DNA from: a virus
Length of the DNA stretch: 64,000 nucleotides
IMG/VR virus record: IMGVR_UViG_3300032241_002567
Coordinates: 32,001 to 96,000 of that record
Reading direction: 5' to 3' (one strand)
This document shows, one piece after another, positions 2,045-59,209 of the stretch; position 1 is the first letter of the stretch; each line of letters opens with the position of its first letter. The notes beneath the pieces are model-generated. The model did not search any database. It was not told the DNA's origin and saw only the letters and a program-made list of their open reading frames with translations. The translations under genes were made by a program, and so were the position numbers.

Positions 2045-2974
2045 ATGAAATATTTAAAGTATTTTGAAGCAAAAGTAATACACTTTAAAACACCATATGC
2101 TAATTACCCAACTTATAGGATAATTAATTTTGAAAAATTAGAACCTTTAAAAGATTCTGATATAATAATTGTTTATCACGGATTTTATAGCAAATCTGAT
2201 GTTGAGATTGCATTAACAAAAGGATTATCTGGGCAAGAAATTGCTAGAAGAGTTTATAGCTACGAATCAGGCAATAATAAAAAAGGATTATTTGTTTCAA
2301 TAGATTTTAATAGTGTTAAAAGATTTGCATCATCTGGTATAATTATAGAATTTGCTACTAAAGTATCTGATTTAGAATCACCTATGTGGGTAGGTGGAAG
2401 ATATTTCAAACAGGGAGAATATACCAAATCTTTTACTGATTGGAATAATGAAACAGGAACTTCTGAACAAAGAGAAGAAGAAAGATTAAGAAAAAGAAAA
2501 GAAGCAAATAATAGTGAATATAATTATATAAGATTAAGTGATAGACCAGAATTAGCGCAATCTTTATATTTAGAATCTGAACACCAAGCACTTTTTACTG
2601 GCAATTTAAATCCAAATATGATAAGAGCAGTTTGGTATAATCCAAAAAACAGATATGATGATAAGTGGGAAAGATTGTCTAGAAAAGAGTTTATTGAGAG
2701 GTTCAATATAAAAAAAGAAAAAGGACAATACCCTAATCGTGAATATTTACCTAATGATGAATTTACAATAGAAGATTTTAGGAAAAGATGTATTGAATAT
2801 AGTAATGATGAGAATGAAGGCGAAGAAATATTTCAAAGTTATTTAAAACACTATCTTAAAGATAGATATGCTAATAGATTTGAATTAAAACAAATGGGGT
2901 TTTTCCCAAAACAAATTGAAGAAATACTTCGTTTAAGAAATAGTGGTGAATTTCAAAAATGGATTAAAAATTAA
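2045..2974 (+). CDS. ADP-ribosyltransferase-fold-like protein with N-terminal MKYLKYFE tag
   Basis: VYHG...GLFVS...F...EHQALFTG spacing fits the H-S-E arrangement of ART-like folds; late promoter upstream. Confidence 0.5.
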   Translation: MKYLKYFEAKVIHFKTPYANYPTYRIINFEKLEPLKDSDIIIVYHGFYSKSDVEIALTKGLSGQEIARRVYSYESGNNKKGLFVSIDFNSVKRFASSGIIIEFATKVSDLESPMWVGGRYFKQGEYTKSFTDWNNETGTSEQREEERLRKRKEANNSEYNYIRLSDRPELAQSLYLESEHQALFTGNLNPNMIRAVWYNPKNRYDDKWERLSRKEFIERFNIKKEKGQYPNREYLPNDEFTIEDFRKRCIEYSNDENEGEEIFQSYLKHYLKDRYANRFELKQMGFFPKQIEEILRLRNSGEFQKWIKN

Positions 2975-3012
2975 ACATTCTAATTAGAATGTTTAATTTT
3001 TAATCCATTTTT
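2955..3012. terminator. 58-bp perfect palindrome between convergent genes (bidirectional terminator-like)
   Basis: 29-nt arms with no spacer; the left arm covers the last codons of 2045..2974. Confidence 0.7.
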
Positions 3013-3018
3013 CTTTTT

Positions 3019-3861
3019 TTAAGAAATTTTTCTTTTTTTAAGAAAATTATAAACTAATTTTTTATACCAAGGTAAATCATCAATAAGTTTTACATTTATT
3101 AATTCAAACATATATTGTGAAGTTGGTGAGTATTCTTCAATTGCTCCTATCCAGGTAATATGTTTAGTATCAATTTGAATATCATTTTCAATCAAAGCTA
3201 CGCCAGCTAAATTATTTTGACTACTATATCTTCCAACTAAAATTATATCATCATGTGAATCATAATTTACAAAAACAGATAACCCCATTACATTTCCAAT
3301 TTGTGTTATAACTTCATATTCTTTAATTTTGCCATTTGTATCATAAATAAATCCTGGTATATTTTGAATTAAGTGAACTAATTTTGGACTAATAACCATA
3401 AAAGTAGCCGGACCAATTCTATTATTTACTGCTATACTATTACCAACATGCATAATTCTTGTTATTAATCTTTTTGCATCAATATCATTATTACCAATAA
3501 GTATGTCAGAATTACTGTTTATCCATCTTAATAAGAGTTTAGATTTAGGTTTTAATGTAGTTTTTCTTATACTTTTATCGTTAATTGTCGCTAATTGAAT
3601 ATATTTGTTGAATAGTTTAGAAATTAAAGTATTTATTAATATAAAAGTATTTTTTTCATCTTTTGTAAAGATAATTTTATCACAATAAATATCCTCTTGT
3701 TTTATTTTTAATCCAAATTCTTTCATTGGAAAGCCATTTGGACCATTTGTTTCACCAAGATCGATTTGTTCGATATATGAAATTGAAGCTTTTGTTTCAG
3801 GTGCTTTATAAAAATAAGCTGTATTTAAAAATTCGGAATTTAGATAACTTTTTGAGTTCAT
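3019..3861 (-). CDS. Truncated major capsid protein (gp23/gp24)-like paralogue
   Basis: KEFGLKIKQEDI, RLITRIMHVGNSIAVNNRIGPATFMVISP and IGNVMGLSVFVN..DDIILVGR..AG align by eye with the C-terminal half of T4 gp23. Confidence 0.65.
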   Translation of the reverse strand: MNSKSYLNSEFLNTAYFYKAPETKASISYIEQIDLGETNGPNGFPMKEFGLKIKQEDIYCDKIIFTKDEKNTFILINTLISKLFNKYIQLATINDKSIRKTTLKPKSKLLLRWINSNSDILIGNNDIDAKRLITRIMHVGNSIAVNNRIGPATFMVISPKLVHLIQNIPGFIYDTNGKIKEYEVITQIGNVMGLSVFVNYDSHDDIILVGRYSSQNNLAGVALIENDIQIDTKHITWIGAIEEYSPTSQYMFELINVKLIDDLPWYKKLVYNFLKKRKIS

Positions 3862-3869
3862 TTGTCATA

Positions 3870-4911: not shown

Positions 4912-4918
4912 AAGAATA

Positions 4919-5544: not shown

Positions 5545-6645
5545 ATGAAAAAAATAAGCAATTATGCTTCATTCATTAAGCAAAATAAATTAAAGTATTA
5601 TTCATTTGACTGGGATGATAATATTTTACATATGTCGACTCCTATTCATATGGATAAGTTAATTGAAGGTAATTGGGAGCCTATTTCAGTTTTTCCTTCT
5701 GAATTTGCTCATATTCGTAATAATTTAAATTTCAGAAACAGAGAAAATAATCCTCATAAAGCTTATGAAGAATTTAGAGATATAGGACCAAGAGGTAATA
5801 TGGCTTTTTTGCTTGATATGCAAAAATCAATTTCTGAATCAAAATTTGGTCCTTCTTGGAATAAATTTATTCAATGTTTAGTTGAAGGTTCTTTATTCTC
5901 TATTGTAACAGCAAGAGCACATGAATATCAAACACTTAAAGAAGGTGTTAAATGGATTATAGATAATTGTCTTATAAAGCAGCAACAAGATTTAATGTAT
6001 GAAAATTGTCAAAAATTTCTTCAATTATTTGAAGGTAAATCATTTGTAAGAGAAAATAATATAAATATATCGGATACTAAATTAATAAACTATTACTTAG
6101 ATAAGTGTAAGTTTTATGGCGTTGGATTTCCTTTTTCAAATTCATTCAAGTCTGAATTTAATTTAGATCCTTCAATTAAAATTGAAGAAGCAAAGAAAAT
6201 TGCATTAGATAAATTTTTAGAAATTTGCAACTCTTATGGTAAACAATCTAATAGAAATGTTTCTGTTGGGTTTTCTGATGATGATAAAAAGAATATTGAA
6301 CATGTAAAAAAATTCTTTGAATTTAAATCAACTATCTATGATAGAATGAAATTAAATATTTATGATACATCTAAACTATCTAGTCATAAAATTAGATTTG
6401 AGAATGGTATAAAAGAAGATATGGGTCCATCTTCCTCTGGTAAAGAAAATTCTATTTTATTATATATGAGTCCTAATTCTATGCCAAATACATTACAAAA
6501 TGCTACTAATGATTGGAGCCAACCAAATTATACACTTTTACAAAAATCAAAAGTAGCTACTCTGTTAACAAAAGATGTTGTGAAAAAGAAAGCCAAACTT
6601 AAAAAGAAAAATGCAAAATCTAAAAGTAACAATAATCCAGCCTGA
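5545..6645 (+). CDS. HAD-superfamily phosphatase-like protein
   Basis: FDWDDNI (motif I), IVTAR (motif II), GFSDDD (motif IV). Confidence 0.7.
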   Translation: MKKISNYASFIKQNKLKYYSFDWDDNILHMSTPIHMDKLIEGNWEPISVFPSEFAHIRNNLNFRNRENNPHKAYEEFRDIGPRGNMAFLLDMQKSISESKFGPSWNKFIQCLVEGSLFSIVTARAHEYQTLKEGVKWIIDNCLIKQQQDLMYENCQKFLQLFEGKSFVRENNINISDTKLINYYLDKCKFYGVGFPFSNSFKSEFNLDPSIKIEEAKKIALDKFLEICNSYGKQSNRNVSVGFSDDDKKNIEHVKKFFEFKSTIYDRMKLNIYDTSKLSSHKIRFENGIKEDMGPSSSGKENSILLYMSPNSMPNTLQNATNDWSQPNYTLLQKSKVATLLTKDVVKKKAKLKKKNAKSKSNNNPA

Positions 6646-9888: not shown

Positions 9889-11103
9889 ATGAGATATTTA
9901 AAAAGTATAAATGAATTATATAAATCTCCCGGTTATTTGAATAGAATTTCCACACCTGATTCAGAAACAGGTGATATAAATCTATCAAGATTTGTGGAAT
10001 GGACTCCAAAATATACTCAAGGATGGGAATTAATGGGTATGCATGAAGTTGATGAAGATGGTTATGAATTATCAGATAGATATATTGCAATTGATAAATT
10101 TATATTTGAACAAAACTTAAGTGATGAAGAAATAAATACTATTAAACTTTCAATTACGGCTGCATTGGGTCAGATTGGTAATGCTAAATGGATTGATGGA
10201 TTTAAATTTGAATATAATAAAGCCAATGCTATAATATGTCTTGGTAAATTAGGTTTAATTTTTAAAAACAGGTATTATACACCAGTTTTTAGGATTTCAA
10301 AAAGAGAAGGTAGTTTATTTTGGATCGTAGCTGATTTTTATAAAGGTAACCAAATTGCTAGAAGTATTATGGTTACAAAATCAGATATTTCGAATCATGA
10401 ATTAGAGAGAAATTCTATTGAAATACAAAATGCACATTATCGTAAAGAATTTGAAGAAGAAAATAAAGAAAGACGCAAAGAAGGAAAGTCATTATTGTTA
10501 AAACCAAAAGAAGTTAAAGATGAAAGAAATTTTGTTAATCAATTATCAATAGTAAGAGACACAGGTGAAAAACAATTTTTCGTTATTTATATTGATATAT
10601 CAAAATATGATAGAATACAATTTGCTAAAAAAATGACTGGTGCTGATATAACATTAGAATCGCCAAGAACGGTTGCTGTAAAAACATCTAAAAAAAGAGA
10701 ATATGTTAAATCTGGAAATTATTTTTATTTTGATGTAAATAATGATCCTAAATATAAATATCTTTTAGCAAAAAATAAAGATTATCCAGAAAAATTAAAA
10801 GAGGTGAAAGATTTAGGTGGAAGAATGAAAGTTATTTTATATGAAGAAACACCAGGTGTGTTTAAATATGCCACGATAAAAAATATAGCGGCAACTGCTC
10901 AAAATTTAAAATCTAATTCATTAACACTTATTTTAAGTGCAAATAAAGTAGAAAAAATTCTAAAATTAGAATCGGGTGTTAAATTAAGAATACCTGTTTT
11001 AAATACCGATTATACAGATAGATTTGATTTATTTGAAGTTGAAGTTGGAAAAGTTGATCCAAAAGATAAAAAGAAAATACCAGTAATTAGAATACAAAAA
11101 TAA
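9889..11103 (+). CDS. Hypothetical late protein with MRYLKSINE tag
   Basis: Long ORF; TAATATATA overlaps the first ATG (9883), so 9889 is the likelier start. Confidence 0.7.
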   Translation: MRYLKSINELYKSPGYLNRISTPDSETGDINLSRFVEWTPKYTQGWELMGMHEVDEDGYELSDRYIAIDKFIFEQNLSDEEINTIKLSITAALGQIGNAKWIDGFKFEYNKANAIICLGKLGLIFKNRYYTPVFRISKREGSLFWIVADFYKGNQIARSIMVTKSDISNHELERNSIEIQNAHYRKEFEEENKERRKEGKSLLLKPKEVKDERNFVNQLSIVRDTGEKQFFVIYIDISKYDRIQFAKKMTGADITLESPRTVAVKTSKKREYVKSGNYFYFDVNNDPKYKYLLAKNKDYPEKLKEVKDLGGRMKVILYEETPGVFKYATIKNIAATAQNLKSNSLTLILSANKVEKILKLESGVKLRIPVLNTDYTDRFDLFEVEVGKVDPKDKKKIPVIRIQK

Positions 11104-12056: not shown

Positions 12057-12368
12057 TTAAATTTTATTTTGTAAATATAATTGGTTTGAAATATATTCTG
12101 AATAAGCAATAGATTCGTCTATTTGCTTACAAAGATACGAATTAATTCCGTAATAATTCATATAGTTTTTATAAGTATCTGTTTCTTCCACAGTTAATGG
12201 TATATACTCTATATCCTTTAAAATAGAATCTATTTTTCTATCTCTATTAACCGCTTTTAATTCTCTTTCTATTTCTTTAGCAAGAAAAATATCTTTTTCG
12301 TAAATATCAGAATGCATAGTTATATTAAAATTCCCATTCATCCCATTTTTGTTTGTTAAATTCATCAT
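12057..12368 (-). CDS. Small NRDRKIDSIL-module protein
   Basis: KAVNRDRKIDSILKDIEYIPLTVEETDTYKNY; start uncertain (overlaps polymerase end). Confidence 0.65.
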   Translation of the reverse strand: MMNLTNKNGMNGNFNITMHSDIYEKDIFLAKEIERELKAVNRDRKIDSILKDIEYIPLTVEETDTYKNYMNYYGINSYLCKQIDESIAYSEYISNQLYLQNKI

Positions 12369-13857
12369 CTGTATAATCTTCATCAGTTTCTTCTTGTTTT
12401 TTCTTTTGTAATGAACTACCAAATATATCCAATACAACTGATAATCTTTTTGTTATTTCTGGCATTCCTAATGGTTCTATAATTGAATTGATAGGAGATA
12501 AGATACATTTATCAAATTGTTCGTCTAAATCTATTTCAGGCGCAATTTCAATAGGATAAGAACCACGATTAAATGCGAATACCGAATTAATTTTTTTATT
12601 CTTACAATAATAATATTTTATTTTAGAACCAGATTTTAAGAATTCATATTTAGATTGTAAATCTTTATTTTTATATAACAACCAATTATAATAAGCGGAA
12701 GCTTTTACCGCAAAATGAGCACCGTTTACAAATAATAATTTATTTTTATCATCCAAAACTTTTTCATTATAATTAGAGCAACTAGATTGCATACTAATCT
12801 CATCAATTCTATCCGGAACACATAAATCAAATTCTTTTTTAAGATTTTTAACCAATTTAAGTAATTCCCGAATGTTAAAAGTATCTGGGTGACTAAATAA
12901 ATATTTAATAATATCTACGATTTTATCTCTCGCAAATGATGGTGTAGAACGTCTAACTAGCTCAACTCCCTTTGGATAGATATAATTTAATCTTTCATAA
13001 GGTATGCCATCTTCAAATACTATGTGTTGAATATATTTCTTTTTGGCAATATAAATAACAGATTCACTAATTCTTTCTAATTCAAAATCTTCTTTATTTG
13101 TAACTCCATAACTTTCAGCATATTCTTCAAGACATTTCTTAAAATATCCAGCATAACGATAATAGTCAAGTCCATGTATATAATCTAATTCATAAGACCA
13201 GTTCCATTTAAGTTTTGATTCTAATTTATTATCATTGATAAACTTATCAAAATCACGATTTTTGATCCATTTACCATCCGCTATAAATAATTCTATTTCA
13301 TCTAAATTTTGAATATCGGACAAATTTTCATAAATACCTAAACAATTAGGATTATCTGATTTAATTTCTTCTCTACCTTTTAGAATTATATGCTTTTTAG
13401 TTATTTTATCTAAATTAGAAAAGAAAAGATTTTTCCAATCTGAATGTGTTATTGCTGGTTTAAATGATACGAATAAAGAATCTGTGTCAGCGTAAATGCT
13501 AACTGGCTCTTTTTCTATTTGCTTTATTTTTCTAATGCAAACTTTTTGATGTAATTCTGTATCTTTATGCCATTGATTATACCAATAATCTTCGTTAACA
13601 CGATTCATTGTTTTAGTCAAATCTCTACCCTGAGCTGTGATTGAAGATGCCACATGGTTATTAAATAGAACGAAATAGGATGCCGCGAAGGCGCCATATG
13701 ATTTTTGCCCCACCATTTCTGGTGGGGCCATTTAAGATCCATTAAGAACTAACTTGAGTGCTAATTGTAAGGCATTGAAATAATCAACATCCTTTTTCAA
13801 GTTAGCAGCTTGAGTTCTTAATGAATCTAATTGTATTAATTTTTCTTCTTTTGTCAT
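12325..13857 (-). CDS. Family B DNA polymerase, C-terminal subunit (gp43B-like), interrupted in motif B by a 36-nt insert
   Basis: Unannotated 41-aa 5' ORF 13857-13732 ends QLALKLVLNGS*. The same frame resumes YGAFA...ITAQG...YADTDS...KKKY...KGVELVRRSTP. No exonuclease domain or motif A. Confidence 0.93.
13699..13734 (-). other. Candidate translational-bypass element (stop, hairpin, landing codon)
   Basis: mRNA GGA UCU [UAA AUG GCCCCACCA GAAA UGGUGGGGC AAAAA UCA] UAU GGC; perfect 9-bp stem at 13707-13728. Confidence 0.6.
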
Positions 13858-13866: not shown

Positions 13867-14772
13867 ATGTTTTTAACTTATAAAACTAAACTAAAAGAAA
13901 GTTTTTTATATAAAAATATATATTTTATTATTATGTTAAAAAACAAAAAGATTGAAGTTTATATTTCATACAGAAATATAACTCACTATAAAAAATTAGG
14001 CTATAACCCCGAATTAAATGAGAATTTGGAAATCGATGTTTATGATTTACCGACATCTTCACATGTTAAAATTGATGCTATTTGTGAAATCTGTAAAGCG
14101 GAAATAAATATAAGATATCATAAATATATTGAAAATAAGAAAAGGCATGGTTTTTATGGCTGTAAAAAATGTTCAAGACAAAAAGCTTCTTTAACTATGT
14201 TCGATAAATATGGAGTTTATAATGTTTCAGAATTAGAGGAATGTAAGAATAAAAAAGAAGAAACATATTTAAAAAAATATGGATATAAAACCAATTTAAT
14301 TTCCCCAGATTATATTTCACTTATAAAAGAAAAATTGAAAGAAAAATATAATACAGAAAATTGGTATGAGATTAGAAACGGTCAAGGTTCTCCTAAAAAA
14401 TTAATAATTTTTGCAGAATCAAAAGAATATACCGAGATAAGTTTTAATTATGATAATCAATTCATGAATAGTGACTATATTATGTATAGGAATGAAGTTC
14501 GTAGACTTACTAAGACTAATGAAAAATTGTTATTCCAAAATTGGAATGGTGAAGATTTTTATGATAAAGAAATTATAAGTAATAATTTTATTTTAGATTT
14601 TAATGACCCAAATTATCCAACTATCGATCATAAAATATCTATTTATTATGGTTTCAAAAATAATATGCAGCCAAAAGATATCGCAAAAATAGAAAATCTT
14701 TGTATCACAAAGAGAAGTATTAATTCTTCAAAAAATAGTAAAAATGAATCAGAATTTATTCGTGAAGATTAA
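13867..14772 (+). CDS. Free-standing HNH-type homing endonuclease
   Basis: CEIC..CKKC, KYGV/KYGY repeats, PTIDHKISI...NLCITKRSINSSKN; start may be the second Met (13933); divergent from the polymerase. Confidence 0.75.
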   Translation: MFLTYKTKLKESFLYKNIYFIIMLKNKKIEVYISYRNITHYKKLGYNPELNENLEIDVYDLPTSSHVKIDAICEICKAEINIRYHKYIENKKRHGFYGCKKCSRQKASLTMFDKYGVYNVSELEECKNKKEETYLKKYGYKTNLISPDYISLIKEKLKEKYNTENWYEIRNGQGSPKKLIIFAESKEYTEISFNYDNQFMNSDYIMYRNEVRRLTKTNEKLLFQNWNGEDFYDKEIISNNFILDFNDPNYPTIDHKISIYYGFKNNMQPKDIAKIENLCITKRSINSSKNSKNESEFIRED

Positions 14773-15256
14773 CTGGTTTTGACATCATAGTAAATGGAAT
14801 CACAACGTCTTTTAGAGACTCCAAAGTTTTTAAGGTTTGTTGATAATTTGTAAAAAGATTTATTTTATTTACTTTTGAAGTTATTTCCCATAGAGGAGTT
14901 TTGGTATTATTTAATACAATACCATCAGAAGTCATATTTAGATATTTAATTTTTTTATCACTATCAATAAATCCAATTTTTTCTGGCATTATTTTATCTT
15001 CTAAGTGTTTTTTTAAAATATAAAATGTTCCAGTTAATAAAACTTCATACTGGTCATTTTTGCCTTTTCTGATTTTATCAATTATTCCCATATAAATTTT
15101 TCTTTTACCTTCAAAAATTGGGTTACTTAAAATTAAAACACAACCACTTTCAATTGGTTCAGTATGTGAAGCTTTCATTGTGGAAAATGGATGTTTGGGC
15201 TTTCTAAGATGTTTATAATTCTCATTAAATGATTTGAAATTAAATATATAATTCAT
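14756..15256 (-). CDS. Hypothetical late protein with MNYIFNFKSFNE tag
   Basis: Shares a divergent TATATATA promoter core with 15273. Confidence 0.65.
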   Translation of the reverse strand: MNYIFNFKSFNENYKHLRKPKHPFSTMKASHTEPIESGCVLILSNPIFEGKRKIYMGIIDKIRKGKNDQYEVLLTGTFYILKKHLEDKIMPEKIGFIDSDKKIKYLNMTSDGIVLNNTKTPLWEITSKVNKINLFTNYQQTLKTLESLKDVVIPFTMMSKPVNLHE

Positions 15257-15272: not shown

Positions 15273-15734
15273 ATGAGATTACAAAAATTTTTGGAACATG
15301 TATTAGCAAATGGACTTACTTTTAAAGTAAAAGAAACTAAAAAAACTATTTTAATAGAATCTTATTCTGAGGAAAAATTAAAATTGGATTCTTGGATTTC
15401 TATGAATAAATTTTATTCTTATGATGATGCAGAGTCAACACTTAAAGGATTAATTGATGAAGATGAATATGAATTATTAACAAATGATAAACCAGTTATT
15501 TTTATTGATAAAATAGGAGTTAGAAAATCTATACAAAGAATAGGAATAGGATCTAATTTGTTAGATAAATGTTTTGAAGTAGCACTCAATAAAAATATAA
15601 ATATTATTTTATTAAATGCATTTCCTCTTGATGATTCAATTACTCCAGAAAAGTTAGTTAATTGGTATAAAAAAAGAGGATTTAAATTAATAAAATCTAT
15701 CGGTAAGAATAATTTAATGATTAAAAGATTGTAA
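15273..15734 (+). CDS. GNAT acetyltransferase with MRLQKFLE tag
   Basis: IGVRKSIQRIGIGSNLL (acetyl-CoA motif A), LVNWYKKRGF (motif B). Confidence 0.85.
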   Translation: MRLQKFLEHVLANGLTFKVKETKKTILIESYSEEKLKLDSWISMNKFYSYDDAESTLKGLIDEDEYELLTNDKPVIFIDKIGVRKSIQRIGIGSNLLDKCFEVALNKNINIILLNAFPLDDSITPEKLVNWYKKRGFKLIKSIGKNNLMIKRL

Positions 15735-36688: not shown

Positions 36689-36736
36689 ATTTTATATATT
36701 TATTCTAACAAATCTTATTTATTTAATATATAATAT

Positions 36737-47311: not shown

Positions 47312-47746
47312 ATGATTAAAAAATGGTATAAATATTATGTTCTAAAAGAATCTGTAAAAGAGATAGAACTTAATAAAATTTTGGATAAAATATCCAAAGG
47401 CGAAAGTTTAACCATTAGAGAAGATAATTTTTTGAATCTTTATAATCAAACACAAGACGATGATTTAAATGATTATGCTTATCTTTCAAGAAATATAGCA
47501 ATATCTAAAGTTTCTGATTATTTAGAAAAAAAGAAAAAAATCTGGTGTGATTTGAACGATAGAGATGGTAAAATTGGAGATTTAATTATTAAAGTTTATA
47601 AATCAGAATACAAATTGATACTTAGGCACGGAGAATATATGATGAGTGATAATATGTTATACAACATAACTTATAATATTAAAAAGGATGAATATTCATT
47701 AACAACACAAGATGAATATTATGAAGAAATAAATGTAAATAAATGA
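47312..47746 (+). CDS. Hypothetical late protein
   Basis: LNKILDKISKG..LT..E..FL (DUF6576-like); TAATATATA upstream. Confidence 0.65.
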   Translation: MIKKWYKYYVLKESVKEIELNKILDKISKGESLTIREDNFLNLYNQTQDDDLNDYAYLSRNIAISKVSDYLEKKKKIWCDLNDRDGKIGDLIIKVYKSEYKLILRHGEYMMSDNMLYNITYNIKKDEYSLTTQDEYYEEINVNK

Positions 47747-48009
47747 AAATAAAGAAATTCCAACAATTTTTAGAATCTATCTCTGGCACAGAACTTATAG
47801 GCTCATTAGGTCCAGGTATTGGTAGTCAAAAATTGTCTAACACAATTACATCTAATGATACATCAGTTATTGCATCTGATATAACTGGGAAAATATATAC
47901 TTTTGATGATTATAATGATTTATATGAAGAATATTTAAAAAAAGGTGGCAAACCACTCAAAGATGGATTTATAAAATCTAATTTGGAAATTATTTTAACT
48001 AAACTATAA
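47743..48009 (+). CDS. Hypothetical protein with MKIKKFQQFLES tag
   Basis: ATGA overlap with the upstream gene. Confidence 0.7.
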   Translation: MKIKKFQQFLESISGTELIGSLGPGIGSQKLSNTITSNDTSVIASDITGKIYTFDDYNDLYEEYLKKGGKPLKDGFIKSNLEIILTKL

Positions 48010-48082: not shown

Positions 48083-51000
48083 TTATAGCGATTGAAATCC
48101 TCCCGCTTGAATTGCTCCTGTTTTAAGTACTGTAATATTATTTACAATAACTGACATTCCCTTAATCGGTTCTATATATGTGTCTAATACACCTATTTGA
48201 TTATCAATTAATGTAGTTGTATTATTCTCTGAATCACACTTGTTGAAGTAATTATATAAACCATTTTTATTAACAAATCCTGCACAAATAACATCAGCTC
48301 TTAATTTAATTTCAGCTCTAGTATCTTGTGTGTTAAATTGCCATTGATAATTTAATAACATATCAACTAAGGCATTTTCTAATTCAATAAGAACTTCTCT
48401 AACATGTAAAAAAGATAATGCTGATTTATAAAGTGTTAATGCTGTATTTTCTGTATCAATTATCCAACCTCTATTCTTTTTATAAATAATTGGATTCATT
48501 TGAGCACCGTTTAAATTATTTATATCAGTTGGTGAAAAATCCATTTCAACACCTGCAATTCCTTGTATTAATCCATTTTGCACGCCAGCCGCAATAGTCC
48601 AAGGAACAATTGAAGTTACATTTGTAGTAAATTTCCTCATATAAGTTGAAGCTACAAACATTGCTGGCGGAACACTTATCGGATTACCATTATCATTTAC
48701 AGTTAAATATGGAGTAAAATAACCTACACAAGTTGTACCTGCACCTTCACCAAAAGAATATAAGAAAGCTGGATTGTTATTTATATCTCCACCTTGTGCT
48801 ATTAATGCTGTATCTAAAACCTTAGTTCCATTTGATAGTGTGTTTGTAAAACTTGGTGAAGATGAATTTTTAAATTGTTTTAATGAAGGCATATTAATGA
48901 AACCTAAACAATTTAATCTACCACCACATATATCAACTAATTGTTGTTTTGAAAATTCTGTTAAACCAAGACCAAAAGAATCAACTAAATATCTAAAATC
49001 AATTGCATCTTTATTGATAAGAGCATTATATAAAGGTGTTCCTTTAGCAACTAAATTTAAAATATTATTTTGTGTTGCTTCTGTACCATCTGGAAGAGAA
49101 GCTTGACGAATTCTAAATCCTTGAAGTGGTATAGCTTTATAAGTAGTCACATAATTATCAAGAGATGAATATCTCATTGTTTGATAAGTAGTTGATGTAG
49201 GGCTTCCAACTGGGAATTTAAATATTGCCGCATCACATGTTATTAAGGATAATGTTGTATCTGCGCTATAAACTTTTTTAGAAATAATTCTTGTTAAATT
49301 TTTAGCTTGTTGTCCTACTTGTAAATCAGCAGAAGAATTATCTTGAAGTAAGAAATCTCCTACAGCTAAATTAGAATATCTACTAGAATTTATAAGTATT
49401 TGATTAGAAACTTGTGTATAACCACTAGGTACAACTATCTCAATTGTTTCTTGATAATTAGATTCATACGAATTAATATTAAATGTCCCATTAATTCCCC
49501 AATTATTAAATAATGAAGTATGATTACCTTGATAAGTATAAAGATCATTTCCAGTTATTTTAATTGTTAAATTATTATTTGAATTTATATTCATTGCTAA
49601 ATAATATTTAGTATCAGTGCTCCATATTCTATTAATATTATATAAAGTTTCAGATGTAACCGAATCAGAAACTAAATAAGTATAAGTATTTGATGTTGTA
49701 ATACCTAAAATAGTAGTATAATTATACCCTATAGGATGTGAACCATATGGATCTGTTTCAATTGTTAAGACTCCATTATTTAATACTGAATCTGGAACCA
49801 TTAGATTGAAATATGATACTCCTAAATTATTATTAAATGGATTACCACTTTGTGCACCCTGTATTGAGATAAAGTTTAAACCATTATAAACAGCTGATGA
49901 ACCAGTCAATCCAGATGTATTTATAAAATGTATTGTTGAGGCTGTATATGTTGCTGTTCCATTTGTTGAAAGAACATTTGCATAAAAATAATCACCTGTA
50001 TTAATTTCACCATTATAATAATCTTGATAAATAGTTGAATATTGTCCTGCTACACCATATGCACTTGCTCCAATTAGTGAATTGCTTGCTGGTAATGAAC
50101 TAGTAATAATTTCATTATCAGAAAGTATTAATTCATTATCACTTGCATAAATTAAAAATCCATTAGCACTATTAAATGTAGGTAAAACATAATTATAAAA
50201 TTGGGTACTTGTAAAGCCCATATTCGAAATAGTTATTGATTTGTTTAATGTATTATCAGTAACTGCACTTATAGACATATTAGCCATACTAAACTTTTGA
50301 TAAACACCTGTACTGTCAATAACAGTCATAATTGCTGCCTTTTCGATTTCAACGGATTCTAATAAAGTTCTTAAAGCATTGAATCTTTTAATTCTTCTAT
50401 ATTGTGTATAGTTTGATGTATCCGGAAATGCTGCTGAATTAGTAAAAGTTAATGTAATAGAATTTAATCCACTTGATGTAATAACATAATCTGTATTATA
50501 TTGCAAATCATTATAAGCAAAACTACCATTACTAGCTGAATTTGTACCAATTGTAATATTACTGTAACTTAGACCGACTATATTTCCACTATTTAAATTT
50601 AATTGCATATAACCTAAAACTATATCAGTAGTGGCTACTGTAGGATTTACACCAGGTGTTGTTGAAGTCACATTGGTAATTGCGCCGGTTGTATCTAATT
50701 TAATAGTGCTTATATAGGAATAAGTTCCTGAAGCTGATGCAAAATTTGTTGCTGGAACAGAAAACGTATAAACACCGCTATAAATATTCACTAAATTACC
50801 ACCAATAATTGCGTATGCTGATTGATTATTATAAACGTTATTTCCAGAGGCAACTGTGTAACTTACAGCAGCTGTAAGTGAACTAAAAGTTGAAGTATTA
50901 AAATAAACACCACTAACTCTTTCTTCTGCAAAAGTATTAGTTCTAATAGAACCACCATATCCATTATAAAAATCATAACTTGGTCCAGGATCTATTGAAT

Positions 51001-52063
51001 AAACATTACCTACTGTATCTAAATAAGTATTAGTATAACTATTTATAGTTACTAACTGTTGATTATAAGATAAAAAATCTATTGATTGCTGGTTTGAATC
51101 TAATAAACTATCGCTATTTATTAAGTTATTACCAAGTAAATCAATTGCTCCTGTTGGAAAATCTTGTTCTAATAAATCAGAATTAAAAGCGCAGAATAAA
51201 CCAGTAACTTGTGTGTCTTGATTTATAACATTTTCAATAAAAATATTTTGATTATTTTGATCTCTAAAATATGGAATAAAACTTAAACCTTGATAATATT
51301 TAAGTAAAGTAACATTTCTATCATTAATAAAATTTTGAACTTGTCCTTTTAATAAACCAGTTGAATCAAAATATTTAGACCAATTAGTATCAACTGATAG
51401 AGATTGATAATTTGACCAATCACCTGCTACTACTACTACATCTACCATGTAATCTGATACATAATCAGTTGGATAAACATATGACGGGATATTTGTAACT
51501 GAACCATACCATTGAGTCATAGTAACATCAAATCCAGTTGCGGTTGTTTTGAAAACAAATGCTGTTATATAAGATCCAGATACATTAGTAAAATTAAGAA
51601 GTCTTTTAGAATAATTTTCATTATTTGAAACTAATGATAAGAAAGAATCTGTGCTTAATTTCCAAAAACCAGTTGTGTCATAAAAAGCACTTAATGATCC
51701 AGTTTTAATAACATCATTAGAATTGTTAGTAGATGTTGATAAAGGTTCATATTGTATTTGATCTAAAATAGGATCTGTTTCTAGAAGGTTTAAAGCATAT
51801 ACTGGTGAAGATTGAATCATCTGAGCAATTGTTCTTTGAAAAAAAGAACCTTTTCTTTCTAATGTTCTATCAATACCACCGAAATAGTTTGTTAAATCTT
51901 GTGTTGTTTGAATAAGCACAGGAGTATTTATAGGACCAGTCTTAGAAACACCTATAACTAAATTTGTAATACCTTGAACTGTGTTACTAGATAATACGCT
52001 ATTGTCATATTCGTTTATAAAAATTCCTGGTCTTTTATAATTACTTATTATTACTGCTGGCAT
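48083..52063 (-). CDS. Tail sheath protein (gp18-like) with large insertions
   Basis: RPGIFINEYD..., GPINTP, VPPA, AAG..G, MNPI, LHVREVLI, QFNT..TR, CDSENNT. Confidence 0.92.
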   Translation of the reverse strand: MPAVIISNYKRPGIFINEYDNSVLSSNTVQGITNLVIGVSKTGPINTPVLIQTTQDLTNYFGGIDRTLERKGSFFQRTIAQMIQSSPVYALNLLETDPILDQIQYEPLSTSTNNSNDVIKTGSLSAFYDTTGFWKLSTDSFLSLVSNNENYSKRLLNFTNVSGSYITAFVFKTTATGFDVTMTQWYGSVTNIPSYVYPTDYVSDYMVDVVVVAGDWSNYQSLSVDTNWSKYFDSTGLLKGQVQNFINDRNVTLLKYYQGLSFIPYFRDQNNQNIFIENVINQDTQVTGLFCAFNSDLLEQDFPTGAIDLLGNNLINSDSLLDSNQQSIDFLSYNQQLVTINSYTNTYLDTVGNVYSIDPGPSYDFYNGYGGSIRTNTFAEERVSGVYFNTSTFSSLTAAVSYTVASGNNVYNNQSAYAIIGGNLVNIYSGVYTFSVPATNFASASGTYSYISTIKLDTTGAITNVTSTTPGVNPTVATTDIVLGYMQLNLNSGNIVGLSYSNITIGTNSASNGSFAYNDLQYNTDYVITSSGLNSITLTFTNSAAFPDTSNYTQYRRIKRFNALRTLLESVEIEKAAIMTVIDSTGVYQKFSMANMSISAVTDNTLNKSITISNMGFTSTQFYNYVLPTFNSANGFLIYASDNELILSDNEIITSSLPASNSLIGASAYGVAGQYSTIYQDYYNGEINTGDYFYANVLSTNGTATYTASTIHFINTSGLTGSSAVYNGLNFISIQGAQSGNPFNNNLGVSYFNLMVPDSVLNNGVLTIETDPYGSHPIGYNYTTILGITTSNTYTYLVSDSVTSETLYNINRIWSTDTKYYLAMNINSNNNLTIKITGNDLYTYQGNHTSLFNNWGINGTFNINSYESNYQETIEIVVPSGYTQVSNQILINSSRYSNLAVGDFLLQDNSSADLQVGQQAKNLTRIISKKVYSADTTLSLITCDAAIFKFPVGSPTSTTYQTMRYSSLDNYVTTYKAIPLQGFRIRQASLPDGTEATQNNILNLVAKGTPLYNALINKDAIDFRYLVDSFGLGLTEFSKQQLVDICGGRLNCLGFINMPSLKQFKNSSSPSFTNTLSNGTKVLDTALIAQGGDINNNPAFLYSFGEGAGTTCVGYFTPYLTVNDNGNPISVPPAMFVASTYMRKFTTNVTSIVPWTIAAGVQNGLIQGIAGVEMDFSPTDINNLNGAQMNPIIYKKNRGWIIDTENTALTLYKSALSFLHVREVLIELENALVDMLLNYQWQFNTQDTRAEIKLRADVICAGFVNKNGLYNYFNKCDSENNTTTLIDNQIGVLDTYIEPIKGMSVIVNNITVLKTGAIQAGGFQSL

Positions 52064-52140: not shown

Positions 52141-52761
52141 TTATTGTTTTAGATTTTGAATCCTCTTCTTAGCCTCTTCTAATTCTTTTTTCTTTAAATC
52201 TAATTCTTTTTTAGCTTGTATCTTAAGATTAGCGGCATTAGAATTTGCATCTTTCATTTTATTTTCTTGATCTTTTATATCATTTTGTGCTGTTTGAATA
52301 TCATTTCTAGTAACTTGACTATCTCCTTGATTTTGTTGTAAATCTTTTTGTTTTTCTTCTAAATCTTTTTGTTTTTGTTGTAAAGTTTCCTCAGATTTTT
52401 TAACATTTCTTTCTTGTTCTAATTCTTCGGCATATTTAGCAAAAAGAGGATTAGATGGAGTATTAGGATCATCTTTTTGATCTGGATTTTTCCAAAGTAT
52501 TTGTCCTTTAGTTTTAGAAGTTGGGTGTTTAAGAAACTTTGCTGCTAATAATTTATTATATAAATCTTGTGCTATACCTGTTTCAGATGGTTTTTCATCA
52601 TCGATATAAGTATCGTATATTTGTTTTAATTTAGCTTTATATTTATCAAATTGCTTTTTATTCATTTCAGATTGATTAAAAAGAGTCATGTCTGCCTTTA
52701 TATCTAAAGGTACTTGCTCTTTATCTAAATCAAAATTTTCGTATGTTTTTAAATATTTCAT
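52141..52761 (-). CDS. Coiled-coil protein with MKYLKTYENF tag
   Basis: Q/K/E-rich C-terminal coiled coil. Confidence 0.7.
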   Translation of the reverse strand: MKYLKTYENFDLDKEQVPLDIKADMTLFNQSEMNKKQFDKYKAKLKQIYDTYIDDEKPSETGIAQDLYNKLLAAKFLKHPTSKTKGQILWKNPDQKDDPNTPSNPLFAKYAEELEQERNVKKSEETLQQKQKDLEEKQKDLQQNQGDSQVTRNDIQTAQNDIKDQENKMKDANSNAANLKIQAKKELDLKKKELEEAKKRIQNLKQ

Positions 52762-55361
52762 TTTCCTGCTAATAAATTATAATATGTTTCATATGAAATA
52801 CCTTCAAAATCTTTTTTAAGTCTTGTAGGATCACTGAGTGTTTTACCAACAACAGATTCATCGCCAAATTCAGAACCTTTCATCAATTTAGCTAATGGTG
52901 CTCTAAGTTGTGTTTTTCTACCAATCCCTTTATCAGCACCAATAATAGTTGGCATAATGATTTCTTCTTCTATTTGGTCTGATAAATTTTTTTGATTCGT
53001 TGCTTTTTTTATACTTTTGAATTTAAATTTATTACCGTCTGATATAGGTTTTTCCATTTTAATTAATCCCATAAAGACATCACAATTAGCTTTGATTGGC
53101 TCATTGAAATAACTTTTTTCTAGTTGTGATCCACCATAGTAAGCCCATATAAGACTTTCATTAAGCTTAGTGTATTTTACTAGTATATTGTTTTCTTGTT
53201 TTTCTATTACTTCACAAACTAATGTTGGATGTTTTGTTTTGATTATTTTTTTACCACTATTATCTTCTACTTCTTTTGAAGAAGTATATGTTATAGCAAA
53301 AAAGTTTCCTTTATCTAATTGATTATATGATAAACTTTTAGTTTCTTGCCAAAACAATTTATCACTAGTTTTAGTTTCATTTTCTAAATCTTTTTTATCA
53401 TCAGAATATTTAGTTTCAATATCTTTCATATCTAGTCCAAAATATTTACTTATTAAAGTTGCTCTATTTTTTTCGTAAGATTTTAAAGTATTTTCATTAA
53501 TCATATCTCTAATAAATTGCCCTAATGGATTGCCTGTAACAATTTTTTTACCCAATGTTGTTTTCATTTGCCCCCCACTTAATAACTTTTGATATCTAGG
53601 ATTTTCTAATAAAGCAGAAATTTGATCAGTAAATTTATCATATATTTTAATATTTACCCAAGGGCCATATCCAGGGCCAGCATTTTCACTAGGCACCGGC
53701 GCACTTTCTCTACTAGAACCAATATATTTATATTCACTATAAGTTTGCATAGAAATTTTTCCATTAGGTCTATTTGAAGGTATAGTATTATGTTTATATA
53801 AACGATAGGCTTGACCAAATAAATTAGCAATAGAAATTATACTTTCTCTTGCATCTTTATTTTGTTTCATTTCTTCTTTCATTTTATTGGTATTTGCTGG
53901 CATTTCAACACTATTTTCAACTTTTTCTGCAATTTCATTTGCTTTTTTTAGTTCAACTTTCCATTTATTTTCTTCACCTTCAGAAAAATATTTTTCCCAA
54001 ATTGTTTTAACGTTTTTTTCTTCACTTTCTTCGGTTTCATTTTCTTCTATCGATTCAACTTCTTCTTTTGATATATTTTCTTCTTCTGGTGATGGGGGAA
54101 GTGTAGCAATTTCCTCAAAAATTAAAGATTCTTTTTTAAGTGAGGAAATATTATATTCTTTTAACATAGATTCATATAAATTTATTATATTATCTATGTT
54201 AAGATATTTTTTATCTTTTAATGAATAAAATATTTGTAACATTGAAGCTATATCTTTTGAAATTTTATCAATATTTAAAGATTCGGTTACTGAAAAGCCT
54301 TTTATTTCATTAAAATTTTCTATAATAGAATAACCTAATTTTTTCAACTCATCTGAATTCTGATTATTTACCAATGTTCTTATTTCATTTAAATTTGATT
54401 TTAAATTTAAGTTAAAGACTCTTAATAGATTTTCATATGTTTTATCAGTTTGAATATGTACTGGTAAATTACTTTCTTTTATAAAATTAAAATATTTTAA
54501 TTGTAAAAAATTTTCTTGTAATAAGCCATTTTTAACAATTAAAACTTTTTTTGTCTTTGGATCAGTATAATCAATATTTATAACTGGTTCTAATTTTACA
54601 TTTTTTGGATCAATAGTAAATATTGTTTTTGGGTATGTTATATATTGCAATTTTAAACCATTTGTATCTATATCTAAAATTTTAACAAATCCAATTTTAT
54701 TGTCCTTTGATGTATATTTATAAATTTTTCCCTTTTCAAATTTAGATTCTTCTTGTTTTTTTGGTTCATTTTGTATTTCATTGCCAAATATTAATAATTC
54801 TTTCAAAAATGATAAAACAGAATCATCAAAATTATCTTCTATTTGTTCTTCTTGTTTTGGAATTTTCATTTTTTCAAGTTCTTCTTTGAATTTTTCTAAT
54901 TTATCAATTAAATCTTGTTTATTTCCTCCTTCGAAACTATCATCAGGAAGTTTATTTATGAAATCTATGCAACCTGATATTAAACCATTTTCACCATTTT
55001 CTTTATCTAAAAGAAATTTAATTTTTTCTTCATCTGTTCGCTCACCAGCTACTATATTATAAATTTCTCTTAAAATTTCTTTGACTAATAAATCATTAGC
55101 AGCATTTTTTTCATCTGAAAAAGCAACTGCTATATTTTCTAATTCTTTTTCAATTGATTTAACTACTCCATCAATTTTAGTTAAATTATACCCAATTTTT
55201 AATTTTCTAATAGCTGAATTAATAAATCTACCTAATAAAGATCCACCAAAAGTAATATTATTTGTTAATGAAGATTCATTTATTTTAAATTCTTCTTTTG
55301 TTTCAACTTTTATATCGTTAATTGTGGATAAAAATCCATTCCTATTGTATAAATATTTCAT
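52758..55361 (-). CDS. Large putative internal head protein with MKYL tag
   Basis: Late promoter 55384-55392; several (I/L/V)xES putative prohead-protease sites. Confidence 0.65.
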   Translation of the reverse strand: MKYLYNRNGFLSTINDIKVETKEEFKINESSLTNNITFGGSLLGRFINSAIRKLKIGYNLTKIDGVVKSIEKELENIAVAFSDEKNAANDLLVKEILREIYNIVAGERTDEEKIKFLLDKENGENGLISGCIDFINKLPDDSFEGGNKQDLIDKLEKFKEELEKMKIPKQEEQIEDNFDDSVLSFLKELLIFGNEIQNEPKKQEESKFEKGKIYKYTSKDNKIGFVKILDIDTNGLKLQYITYPKTIFTIDPKNVKLEPVINIDYTDPKTKKVLIVKNGLLQENFLQLKYFNFIKESNLPVHIQTDKTYENLLRVFNLNLKSNLNEIRTLVNNQNSDELKKLGYSIIENFNEIKGFSVTESLNIDKISKDIASMLQIFYSLKDKKYLNIDNIINLYESMLKEYNISSLKKESLIFEEIATLPPSPEEENISKEEVESIEENETEESEEKNVKTIWEKYFSEGEENKWKVELKKANEIAEKVENSVEMPANTNKMKEEMKQNKDARESIISIANLFGQAYRLYKHNTIPSNRPNGKISMQTYSEYKYIGSSRESAPVPSENAGPGYGPWVNIKIYDKFTDQISALLENPRYQKLLSGGQMKTTLGKKIVTGNPLGQFIRDMINENTLKSYEKNRATLISKYFGLDMKDIETKYSDDKKDLENETKTSDKLFWQETKSLSYNQLDKGNFFAITYTSSKEVEDNSGKKIIKTKHPTLVCEVIEKQENNILVKYTKLNESLIWAYYGGSQLEKSYFNEPIKANCDVFMGLIKMEKPISDGNKFKFKSIKKATNQKNLSDQIEEEIIMPTIIGADKGIGRKTQLRAPLAKLMKGSEFGDESVVGKTLSDPTRLKKDFEGISYETYYNLLAGK

Positions 55362-56310: not shown

Positions 56311-56320
56311 TATATACACT

Positions 56321-57429: not shown

Positions 57430-57461
57430 AAAAAGCGGTTTTAAACCGCTTTTTTTATTTC
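57423..57461. terminator. Bidirectional terminator including both stop codons
   Basis: 19-nt perfect arms. Confidence 0.8.
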
Positions 57462-57820
57462 TTTTTCTTCCTTGCTTTAGCTTTTTTTGCCTGTGCCCAT
57501 AATTTAGCATCCGCCTTTCTTGCTCCGCCAGCACCAGTTATAAACGAATTGACTCTTCCGGTTGCCCAAGCTTCCTGAGGTGTACCAGGACGATGTCCGG
57601 AATTCCAAGCGGCTCTTCCTTTTTTATATACTTTTTTTAGAATAGAAGAAGGTATACCACTTGCCTTTGATTTATTTGCTATCATTTTTGCGGCTTTTGA
57701 ATTTGGATTATCAACCGAACCTGATTCTGAGCCTTCTAAAATAATATCTTCTATTAAATAGAAATAATCTTTAAAATCAATATCTTCGCAAAAATTTTCA
57801 AAAGTTTTAATATTTACCAT
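57455..57820 (-). CDS. DUF5824-like protein (C-terminal domain) with MVNIKTFENF tag
   Basis: SGIP..IL..VY..G.AAW.SGHRPG..Q.AWA..RVNSF..G...RKAD. Confidence 0.7.
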   Translation of the reverse strand: MVNIKTFENFCEDIDFKDYFYLIEDIILEGSESGSVDNPNSKAAKMIANKSKASGIPSSILKKVYKKGRAAWNSGHRPGTPQEAWATGRVNSFITGAGGARKADAKLWAQAKKAKARKKKK

Positions 57821-57894
57821 AAATAAGTTATTTACTTATATATTTTGAATAAAATCATAACACCAGGAACGTGCCCACTATTAATATATAATAT

Positions 57895-58938
57895 ATGAAA
57901 CATAAACATCATATTATACCAAAACACATGGGAGGTTCGAATGAAAACGAAAATTTAATTGAATTGACGATTGAAGAACATGCTGAGGCGCATAAAATTT
58001 TATATGAAAAATATGGCAAATTAGAAGACTTTTTAGCTTGGCGAGGTCTATTAGGTCAGATAAGTAAAGAAGAAATAATTTCAGAAATTTCAAAACAGAA
58101 TGGCAAAATTAATGGTAAATTTTGTTTTGAAAATAAATTAGGTATATTTTCTTTAACAGACAAAGAGAAAAAACTAAAAAATTATAAAGGCGGAAAAATA
58201 AGTGGTCTAAAAAATGCCAAATCAGGGCATTGTGCTAAAATTGCCAATTTGGGTGGTAAAGCATCTTCTGGTATGAAATTTTGGTTTAATCCAAAAACTA
58301 ATAAAGAAACCAGGTCTTTTGAATGTCCGGGAAAAGAATGGATACCTGGTATTAAAATGGAACGAATAAATATAGAAAATTTAAAAAAACACTCTAATAA
58401 TGTTAAAGGAAAATTTTGGATTCACAATCCAGATACAAATGAGTCTAAAATGATATCATCAATAGATGAAATGCCTGAAGAGTTTATTTATGGTAGAAAA
58501 ATTGAAATTAAAAATACCATTGAATTAATAAATGTTGGTTTTAATTTTAAATCAGAATTACCAAAAATAAAGTCAGAATTTAAAGATATTAGATTTGATA
58601 ATTCATACAAAAGATGGATATTTGAATTTGAATTAAATAATAAAAAACATAAAATTACACACATAGATTATTATGGACTTTTATGGAGTAGAGATTGTAT
58701 TATTAATTATTATAAATTAGATAAGATAAAATCAAAAAAAATAGAAGATTCATTATCTAAAGAAGAAATTTCAGAATTGCTTAAAGATTTTAAAGAATAT
58801 TTAAAAATTAAAAATATTTTGGCAAAAAAACTAAAAAAATCAAAAAAAGATGCATATTTTAAAAAATTATTAGAATATGAAAAAAATTATGATATTGTAT
58901 TAGAAAAAATTCAAATTTATGATAAAAAAGAGGATTAA
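57895..58938 (+). CDS. HNH homing endonuclease
   Basis: HKHHIIPKHMGG.N...NL..LT.EEH..AH; W..NP.T.E repeats. Confidence 0.88.
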   Translation: MKHKHHIIPKHMGGSNENENLIELTIEEHAEAHKILYEKYGKLEDFLAWRGLLGQISKEEIISEISKQNGKINGKFCFENKLGIFSLTDKEKKLKNYKGGKISGLKNAKSGHCAKIANLGGKASSGMKFWFNPKTNKETRSFECPGKEWIPGIKMERINIENLKKHSNNVKGKFWIHNPDTNESKMISSIDEMPEEFIYGRKIEIKNTIELINVGFNFKSELPKIKSEFKDIRFDNSYKRWIFEFELNNKKHKITHIDYYGLLWSRDCIINYYKLDKIKSKKIEDSLSKEEISELLKDFKEYLKIKNILAKKLKKSKKDAYFKKLLEYEKNYDIVLEKIQIYDKKED

Positions 58939-58958
58939 ATTAATCCTCTTTTTTATCA
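58920..58958. repeat. Inverted repeat formed by the 3' ends of two convergent genes (both end DKKED*)
   Basis: TGATAAAAAAGAGGATTAA-A-TTAATCCTCTTTTTTATCA. Confidence 0.95.
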
Positions 58959-59209
58959 AACATTCTTTGATAAGCTTTGGTTGCTGCGGATTTTTTAGTT
59001 TTTACTCTTTTGCCTTTACCACCTTTTCCAGAAGTATAATCAGCATCCCAGTCTTTTTTATATTCTTTTTTACCACGAAATCTATCAATTTCTTTTTTCA
59101 TAGCACCAGGATTTTTTGTCAAATATTTACCTGGTATTTTATGACCTTTATAATATTCAGATTTCTTTTTTTCAAGTAAAAATTCTTCAAAAGTAAAAAT
59201 ATTTTCCAT
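58940..59209 (-). CDS. Basic protein (DUF5824-like N-terminal part) with MENIFTFEEFLLE tag
   Basis: P.KYL...KTKKS..T..Y..MF. Confidence 0.65.
   Translation of the reverse strand: MENIFTFEEFLLEKKKSEYYKGHKIPGKYLTKNPGAMKKEIDRFRGKKEYKKDWDADYTSGKGGKGKRVKTKKSAATKAYQRMFDKKED

Follow-up and report, generated by a model that had tools for sequence, protein, structure and literature searches.

An N-terminal tag shared by unrelated genes

The stretch of DNA considered here (the window, 64,000 nucleotides) corresponds to bases 32001-96000 of a 143,836-bp IMG/VR viral contig (IMGVR_UViG_3300032241_002567, label G000) with a GC content of 26%. Ten of its genes, together with many more in the 642-kb "huge phage" genome LR756502 of Al-Shayeb et al., which served as the main comparison genome, begin with the same short peptide, followed by bodies that are unrelated to each other. 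This N-terminal tag is selected at the amino-acid level. As for its role, it may be a capsid-loading propeptide, analogous in function to the capsid-targeting sequence (CTS) of phage T4, a reading to which we give an even chance.

The tag was described with a 10-residue position-specific scoring matrix (PSSM), iterated over the called open reading frames (ORFs) of the contig and of the complete LR756502 genome, and a cut-off of at least 15 bits was used for counts. Its consensus is M-K-[HY]-[LI]-K-x-[YF]-[EN]-E/x-[FS], and a second, longer form reads M-K-[HY]-L-K-x-Y-K-[IL]-F-E-S; for the listed genes of the window the tag can be summarised as M-K-[YH]-[LI]-K-x-[FY]-E-[NED]-[FY]. On the contig, 15 of the 168 called ORFs (8.9%) reach the cut-off at their N-terminus, against 0 of 106 overlapping spurious ORFs and 0 of 688 internal Met windows; the corresponding numbers for LR756502 are 136 of 982 (13.9%), 1 of 795 and 4 of 3591. 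The scores are distributed bimodally, a score of 15 bits is attained in internal windows overall at a rate of only about 1 in 10,000, and the tag is essentially confined to the N-terminus, with virtually no internal copies. When every ATG on both strands of the window was scored, the sites at or above 14.5 bits were true gene starts in ten cases out of ten. A degenerate DNA pattern for the tag has 6 and 11 sites in G000 and LR756502, respectively, and none when read backwards. The motif is not produced by the same AT-rich DNA in other reading frames, and it is more frequent than chance would give, with 9-14% of called ORFs against about 0.1% of controls. Nor does the tag have the features of a Sec, Tat or lipoprotein signal peptide: it spans 10-12 residues with Lys and Glu throughout, without a hydrophobic run and without Cys. 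A likeness to the clamp-binding motif (x-L-x-L-F) was dropped, as it covers only a subset of the tags.

A first-pass annotation of this DNA had listed fifteen N-termini as one tagged set. All fifteen are present where it placed them; ten of them share the tag (14.5-27.6 bits), one is borderline, and four do not fit the motif in register. The set of about 15 genes is on the other hand too small, with about 19 tagged genes on the contig and about 140 in the complete relative. In the window, the maximum score (27.6 bits, with an exact match to the DNA pattern) is that of a 206-aa protein (M-K-Y-L-K-T-Y-E-N-F; 52141-52761, minus strand), the second gene of an operon. The first gene of this operon (52758-55361, minus strand) encodes 867 aa and has a partial tag, M-K-Y-L-Y-N-R-N-G-F (15.8 bits), with the ATATATA-type late promoter motif described below 22 nt upstream; its 797-aa orthologue in LR756502 begins M-R-Y-L-K-Q-R-E-E-F. 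An ADP-ribosyltransferase (ART) of 274 aa (35864-36688, minus strand), identified by its match to Pfam ART-PolyVal (E = 3e-9, 38.2 bits, cut-off 31.2), carries M-K-Y-L-K-L-F-E-N-F (26.0 bits) with the promoter motif 4 nt upstream. The 309-aa protein at 2045-2974 (plus strand; M-K-Y-L-K-Y-F-E, 19.3 bits) has no Pfam or PHROG match, and the promoter motif ends 6 nt before its ATG. Two tags become apparent from a later Met: M-R-Y-L-K-S-I-N-E-L (17.1 bits, motif 5 nt upstream) in a protein of 404 aa from its second Met (9889-11103, plus strand), and M-K-Y-L-S-I-F-E-L-Y (17.9 bits) in one of 107 aa from an internal Met (22565-22888, plus strand), which belongs to an operon whose promoter precedes the gene at 21799 and matches only PHROG families of unknown function. 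On the minus strand, M-V-N-I-K-T-F-E-N-F (17.4 bits) precedes a DUF5824 body (121 aa, 57455-57820; Pfam DUF5824, E = 9e-14), while M-E-N-I-F-T-F-E-E-F (89 aa, 58940-59209; 16.4 bits) and M-N-Y-I-F-N-F-K-S-F-N-E (166 aa, 14756-15256; 16.1 bits) both have the motif 4 nt upstream. The lowest of the ten is a weak and doubtful tag, M-K-K-I-S-N-Y-A-S-F (366 aa, 5545-6645, plus strand; 14.5 bits), with no late motif within 60 nt; the orthologue of this gene in LR756502 begins M-D-I-L-R-F-D-Q-F-I-R-E-S.

The borderline case is a 56-aa ORF at 18400-18570 (plus strand; M-N-Y-L-L-K-Y-I-L-F-E, 11.8 bits), with the motif 5 nt upstream. The four that do not fit in register are all on the plus strand: M-R-L-Q-K-F-L-E at 15273-15734 (-13.9 bits), the gene at 33756-34364 (-20.8 bits), in which the tag-like F-L-K-Y-I-L-F-K-E-S starts 8 residues in, and two genes starting at 47312 and 47743 (within 47312-48009), with M-I-K-K-W-Y-K-Y-Y-V-L-K-E-S (-23.6 bits) and M-K-I-K-K-F-Q-Q-F-L-E-S (-7.6 bits). 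The last two resemble the variant tags of the huge phage LR756501 (see below), which suggests that a single genome may use more than one dialect of the tag.

Selection on the peptide and its relation to the late promoter

Within the tag, the choice of synonymous codons in LR756502 tracks genome usage (AAA for Lys5, 59% vs 61%; GAA for Glu9, 62% vs 59%; TTT for Phe7, 73% vs 70%), and the tag residues are retained across contigs of 22-45% GC. A conserved tagged protein of 203 aa, encoded outside the window (G000 contig 99508-100119, minus strand), has more than 1000 database sequences, all of similar length, and among the 120 orthologues listed (of 1075 found) the tag is retained at overall identities of 60-97%. 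Since the residues are kept while synonymous sites vary freely, selection acts on the peptide. In the AlphaFold model of the 203-aa protein (predicted template modelling score 0.82), most of the fold has a predicted local distance difference test score (pLDDT) of 83-97, and the modelled body resembles a nicotinamidase/isochorismatase hydrolase. Residues 1-11 have a pLDDT of 39 and make no contacts with the body. The tag is thus a linear motif whose residues are conserved although it is disordered and not packed on the body.

The late promoter motif TTAATATATA (ATATATA type) is found upstream of the capsid, portal, sheath, terminase and baseplate-region genes, and the octamer AATATATA is the top enriched word upstream of genes in both G000 and LR756502. 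An association between the N-terminal motif and this promoter had been proposed, and tagged genes are indeed enriched for it. On the contig, 74% of tagged and 40% of untagged genes have their own motif within 60 nt upstream, compared with 56% and 20% in LR756502 (p = 1e-18); if operon members are counted, the shares become 95% against 56% and 90% against 32% (p = 4e-42), respectively. Host-type promoters are depleted among tagged genes, and in LR756502 about one in three late-class genes carries the tag. Taking the shared promoter type and the gp55-like sigma factor as proxies, the tagged genes are probably expressed late, alongside the head genes.

Between the end of the motif TTAATATATA and the ATG there are mostly only 4-8 nt, whether or not the gene is tagged (for example at 2028-2044, 36689-36710 and 59210-59230 of the window); in a second group of genes the motif is 16-30 nt upstream. 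The shorter spacing suggests that the late mRNAs are leaderless or nearly so, and one could therefore read the conserved start as a signal at the level of RNA or translation for such messages in an AT-rich genome. The spacing is indeed seen in most tagged genes, many of whose transcripts may be leaderless, and there is a mild surplus of A-ending codons at tag positions 2, 6 and 9. We nevertheless find an RNA-level origin scarcely credible: equally many untagged genes share the leaderless layout, the tag persists in genes within operons, most tag positions show the codon usage of the genome at large, and the motif is all but missing from the spurious ORFs and internal Met positions of this AT-rich DNA as well as from cellular AT-rich genomes.

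Tagged genes are also clustered: up to 10 follow one another in tandem, and in hot spots such as that at 20-40 kb of LR756502 they make up 23 of the 37 genes. With a promoter that is often only 4-8 nt from the ATG, promoter and start could travel together, and the clusters would suit a shared start that is an inherited or recombination module, in which promoter and first codons were copied in the manner of the mobile promoter cassettes of T4-type phages and the peptide has no targeting role. This seems very unlikely given that 26-44% of tagged genes lack their own promoter, that the residues are kept with free synonymous sites in more than 100 orthologues (60-97% identity) and in contigs of widely different GC content, and that bodies with different Pfam domains are not paralogues. 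Moreover, many untagged genes use the promoter and have the same layout, so that the plug-in unit of promoter plus tag envisaged in the first-pass annotation is correct as to a link between the two, but not as to their being one unit: they are associated and separable. The tag itself behaves as a module, since an M28-like body occurs both with it and without it (in the latter case with or without another N-terminal domain).

The bodies were likewise thought to be unrelated, and this is confirmed: once the first 14 residues are trimmed off, the tagged proteins (168 in all) form 151 BLAST clusters, 138 of which are singletons, and few tagged genes have a BLAST counterpart between G000 and LR756502. 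Pfam and PHROG searches of the tagged bodies gave almost no functional assignment, and about 94% of the 133 tagged LR756502 proteins scanned are without a Pfam domain. The few domains that could be recognised all differ from one another. Those assigned by Pfam include, elsewhere on G000 and outside the window, a tagged NUDIX protein and a weak M28-like peptidase, and in LR756502 a lysozyme, an Rnl1-type RNA ligase, and SET, GNAT, HNH and PQ-loop domains. Taken together, the tagged ART, NUDIX and nicotinamidase-like proteins point to NAD/ADP-ribose biology within the tagged set.

Head machinery and the ends of the tags

The principle of capsid targeting is already known from T4, in which internal proteins that are otherwise unrelated, and Alt, are carried into the scaffold core by an N-terminal peptide of about ten residues that gp21 then removes (PMC3012670, PMC5694885, PMC8442874). 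The contig encodes machinery of the same type, its head proteins being matched by phrog_207, phrog_138 and phrog_213. A 713-aa protein encoded outside the window (G000 contig 117764-119905) matches the head maturation protease family phrog_207 over residues 1-319 (E = 1.5e-30), with a weak match to Peptidase_S77. As its tblastn match in cyanophages spans the adjacent gp21 and gp22 genes, this protein is a fusion of protease and scaffold. Its middle part consists of about ten 14-residue repeats (...I-x-Y-x-E-Y-[LI]-A-E-N-L-D-K...), each ending in an (L/I)-x-Glu motif, and the repeat Y-Q-E-Y-[LI]-A-E is near-identical to the T4 CTS, which contains ...Y-Q-E-F-I-A-E (PMC8442874). The T4 CTS may itself be an imitation of a scaffold unit. 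The propeptide of the capsid protein has a related conserved sequence, S/A-E-Y-A-E-Y-H-x-I-N-E-N; the N-termini of the protease and of the capsid protein are excluded from the tag by the PSSM.

The ends of the tags resemble T4 sites of the form (L/I)-x-E. The (L/I)-x-Glu motif is reportedly the T4 gp21 site, as attributed to Black et al. in 1994. In the T4 record, sites of this kind read I-F-E-S and L-F-E-S in gp22, I-F-E-N and L-T-E-A in gp23, and M-A-K-I-N-E-L-L-R-E-S in gp24, and the tag ends K-I-F-E-S, L-F-E-N-F and S-I-N-E-L are peptides found at these gp22, gp23 and gp24 sites. In the window, the gene at 9889 has a tag that ends in I-N-E-L, as does the M-A-K-I-N-E-L start of gp24. A Glu is present within residues 4-14 in 95% of tags compared with 49% of other N-termini, and [LIVMFY]-x-E in 77% compared with 23%. 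In both T4 and the phiKZ group, cleavage takes place after a Glu within a short motif (PMC5694885).

Distribution of the tag and of the head module

The DNA pattern of the tag occurs in more than 119 stretches of IMG/VR and at only 29 places in 596 Gb of prokaryotic genomes, mostly on contigs of metagenome-assembled genomes. The tag-bearing IMG/VR contigs are mostly fragments, and 22 of 50 have a gp23-type capsid gene. Wherever the head module was readable on a tag-bearing contig, it contained the protease-scaffold fusion with the same repeats (9 of 9), including contigs of 35-37% GC whose capsid protein is only about 30% identical. The gp23-positive contigs of about 35-37% GC have 2-3 exact pattern matches each and the megaphage contigs dozens. 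The tag is also present in LR756504 (636 kb) and LR756500, and it is absent from Lak-A1, whose scaffold is without these repeats. A tagged protein of 185 aa from a gp23-positive contig (PF07068, 1e-49; GC ~0.37) has no tblastn match in cultured phages.

Several tag-rich contigs are rated 78-100% complete and have no capsid, protease or terminase genes, which could be taken as a refutation of any tie to the head. This was ruled out for G006 and G012, which are fragments of the same clade: they share 114 of 260 and 96 of 604 genes, respectively, with G000 or LR756502, and G012 repeats the tag sites of LR756504. With G006 rated at 84% and G012 (347,857 bp, inverted terminal repeats) at 100%, completeness based on CheckV or on inverted terminal repeats is unreliable in this clade.

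A possible route into the capsid

We infer binding to the scaffold, cleavage, packaging and injection from the observations above, and a possible sequence of events is the following. Late in infection, a gp55-type sigma factor would drive the TTAATATATA promoters, so that synthesis of the tagged pre-proteins coincides with that of the head proteins. The free and flexible N-terminal peptide would bind the prohead core, that is, the gp22-like part of the protease-scaffold fusion, with its repeats ending in [LI]-A-E. Once the gp23-like shell has closed, the gp21-like protease would cut the scaffold at its repeats and the tag after hydrophobic-x-Glu. Tag and scaffold fragments would exit, and the cargo would stay with the DNA, enter the next host and act before phage gene expression. 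Such a cargo would comprise the ART, NUDIX, the nicotinamidase-like hydrolase, HNH nucleases, GNAT, a SET-domain protein, lysozyme, RNA ligase and many small acidic ORFans. The large tagged share of the late-class genes of LR756502 would readily be explained if their products are made late for carriage into the next cell, and we argue that it is hard to explain unless these are virion-associated. For myoviruses, it has been argued that ARTs and NUDIX proteins are packaged in the head (PMC9503650).

A number of results weigh against capsid loading. Firstly, the strict form of the protease site, [LI]-x-E, is found in only 43% of tags (15% of other N-termini), and in 11 of the 120 orthologues of the 203-aa protein position 8 is Asp and the first strand is not preceded by any Glu, which is a poor fit to an obligatory cleavage after Glu. 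Secondly, the tagged proteins are more acidic than the rest (median isoelectric point 5.2), whereas the T4 internal proteins are basic; one tagged protein has a PQ-loop membrane domain; and about 140 cargo species in a single capsid are without precedent. Thirdly, the T4 CTS scores -9.9 bits on the tag PSSM and thus has no sequence similarity to it, and the tag pattern is not matched anywhere in the T4 genome, even with up to 2 mismatches allowed. The tag can therefore be at most a functional analogue of the T4 CTS, not a homologue. It is found in none of eight cultured phages (T4, KVP40, P-SSM2, HTVC008M, PTm1, PAU, RaK2 and phage G). Finally, the tie between tag and scaffold is a clade-level correlation rather than a set of independent events, and LR756501 (735 kb; first 400 kb) has the same scaffold repeats with a tag that is spelled differently: M-I-[KT]-K-[FY]-x-[IL]-F-E or M-x-K-[FY]-x-x-[FY]-I-N-E, which keeps the hydrophobic-x-Glu end, with N-termini such as M-I-K-K-[FY]... 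and M-K-I-K-K-F-N-E.... It can be noted that the tags of LR756501 and the N-terminus of its protease both begin with M-I-K, and those of G000 both with M-K; such a co-variation of tag and scaffold is anecdotal only.

The main rival to capsid loading is that the tag is an address or docking peptide for some other partner, such as a chaperone, a modifying enzyme, a membrane or compartment, the tail or baseplate, or a host factor. A discrete, flexible and modular N-terminal motif would suit any receptor equally well, and the Asp variants, the acidic cargo and the very large number of tagged genes fit a role outside the capsid at least as well. No candidate partner was seen, though, and the tagged genes are scattered, with no recurring adjoining enzyme. 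In addition, the tag ends in the hydrophobic-x-Glu signature of the T4 (L/I)-x-E sites and co-occurs with one particular protease-scaffold, and the late timing of enzymes such as the ART best suits injected proteins. We therefore regard another partner as possible, yet rather unlikely.

Comparison with known systems

If the tag does load the capsid, its closest counterpart is the CTS of the T4 proteins IPI, IPII, IPIII and Alt (Mullaney and Black 1996). Both are short N-terminal peptides on unrelated, fast-evolving late proteins, the hydrophobic-x-Glu end of the CTS recurs in most tags, and in both cases the phage has a protease of gp21 type, a scaffold of gp22 type and a shell of gp23 type, the tagged ART being a parallel to Alt. 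The comparison with T4 drawn in the first-pass annotation thus stands as regards the head machinery, the shared tripeptides and the tagged ART, but not as regards the sequence of the CTS or a strict (L/I)-x-E site. The putative loading system differs from that of T4 in other respects as well: the tag is carried by 9-14% of genes rather than by about four proteins, these genes are scattered, the cargo is mostly acidic, and the spelling is different; the protease and scaffold are fused here, with regular 14-residue repeats.

In the phiKZ, 201phi2-1 and SPN3US phages, head and ejection proteins are also processed after Glu by a gp21-related protease, and their propeptides are thought to target the prohead (PMC5694885, PMC7411985). 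These propeptides are however protein-specific and mostly 79-161 residues long (that of gp45 has 20), the motif is A/S/G-x-E, and about 8-20 proteins are processed, compared with the roughly 140 that share one short tag here (PMC5694885, PMC7411985). MuF and portal effector fusions and polyvalent proteins (Iyer et al. 2017; PMC9503650) are likewise a means of delivering conflict enzymes, ART and NUDIX among them, within the virion, and the Pfam family of the ART in the window is named after the polyvalent proteins. In those systems the address is a folded structural domain or a giant polypeptide, in contrast to a 10-residue linear tag on separate small proteins. Encapsulin cargo-loading peptides are short linear peptides as well, which are found on unrelated cargo and dock inside an HK97-fold shell, but they are usually C-terminal, bind the shell protein, are not cleaved and serve a cellular compartment rather than a virion.

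Source genome and other features of the window

The contig is assigned to a T4-related Bacteroidota megaphage, of which it would represent a fragment of about one quarter, based on its T4-type structural genes, its likeness to LR756502 and the presence of Bacteroidota promoter motifs. According to Pfam and PHROG profile matches it encodes a tail sheath, a portal, a gp23-type major capsid protein and a head maturation protease, and it also carries genes for a family-B DNA polymerase and the gp55-like late sigma factor. Its large terminase shares 58% identity with the LR756502 enzyme, a 962-aa protein has a match in the same huge-phage group, and the Bacteroidota host-type motif TA-n-n-TTTG is found upstream of some non-structural genes. 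A giant eukaryotic virus had been suspected from the 25% GC, the genes on both strands and the DUF5824 match, and was ruled out by the T4-type terminase, sheath, portal and capsid genes. None of 30 tag-bearing contigs had a capsid gene of nucleocytoplasmic large DNA viruses, in a search that was run without a positive control.

Two of the untagged genes in the window with an ATATATA-type promoter upstream are structural or packaging genes. The tail sheath (48083-52063, minus strand; phrog_34521, E = 5e-81) is unusually long, with 1326 aa. The T4-type large terminase (59877-63071, plus strand; Pfam Terminase_6N, LAGLIDADG_3, Hom_end and Hint) is interrupted by an intein, which bears Hint and LAGLIDADG homing-endonuclease domains. 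The gene for a 1934-aa protein (36737-42541, plus strand) has only a weak CBM_5_12 match. The DNA polymerase gene is apparently split (12325-13857, minus strand), a 41-aa ORF (13732-13857) being located directly upstream of the 468-aa polymerase ORF. Small ORFs built from pieces of the major capsid protein recur in the clade, at 315773-316270 and 277261-277446 of LR756502 and also in the contigs G034, G018, G026 and G029.

Implications for large phages

The spelling of the tag, the clade in which it is found, its scale (9-14% of genes) and the resemblance between scaffold repeat, protease site and tag were not found in the open-access papers searched and appear to be new, and the observation would remain so even if the receptor is something else. 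Tentatively, and with less than even confidence, we propose that this clade pre-loads its capsid with at least 100 small proteins (about 1 gene in 7) by means of a tag that imitates the scaffold unit and is clipped by the head protease; the injected proteome could then be read from the genome, and the T4 CTS would be a small-scale relic of such a system. If the tag does load the capsid, it provides a rule, applicable from sequence, that names the proteins injected by a large clade of uncultured phages, and with it hundreds of candidate families for host takeover and counter-defence, most of them ORFans. A sizeable share of the unexplained gene content of huge phages would be accounted for, and the number of known capsid-cargo species would rise from a few tens to more than 100. 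It would also give a testable idea of how such an address may arise, namely that the tag may imitate the scaffold repeat together with its protease site.

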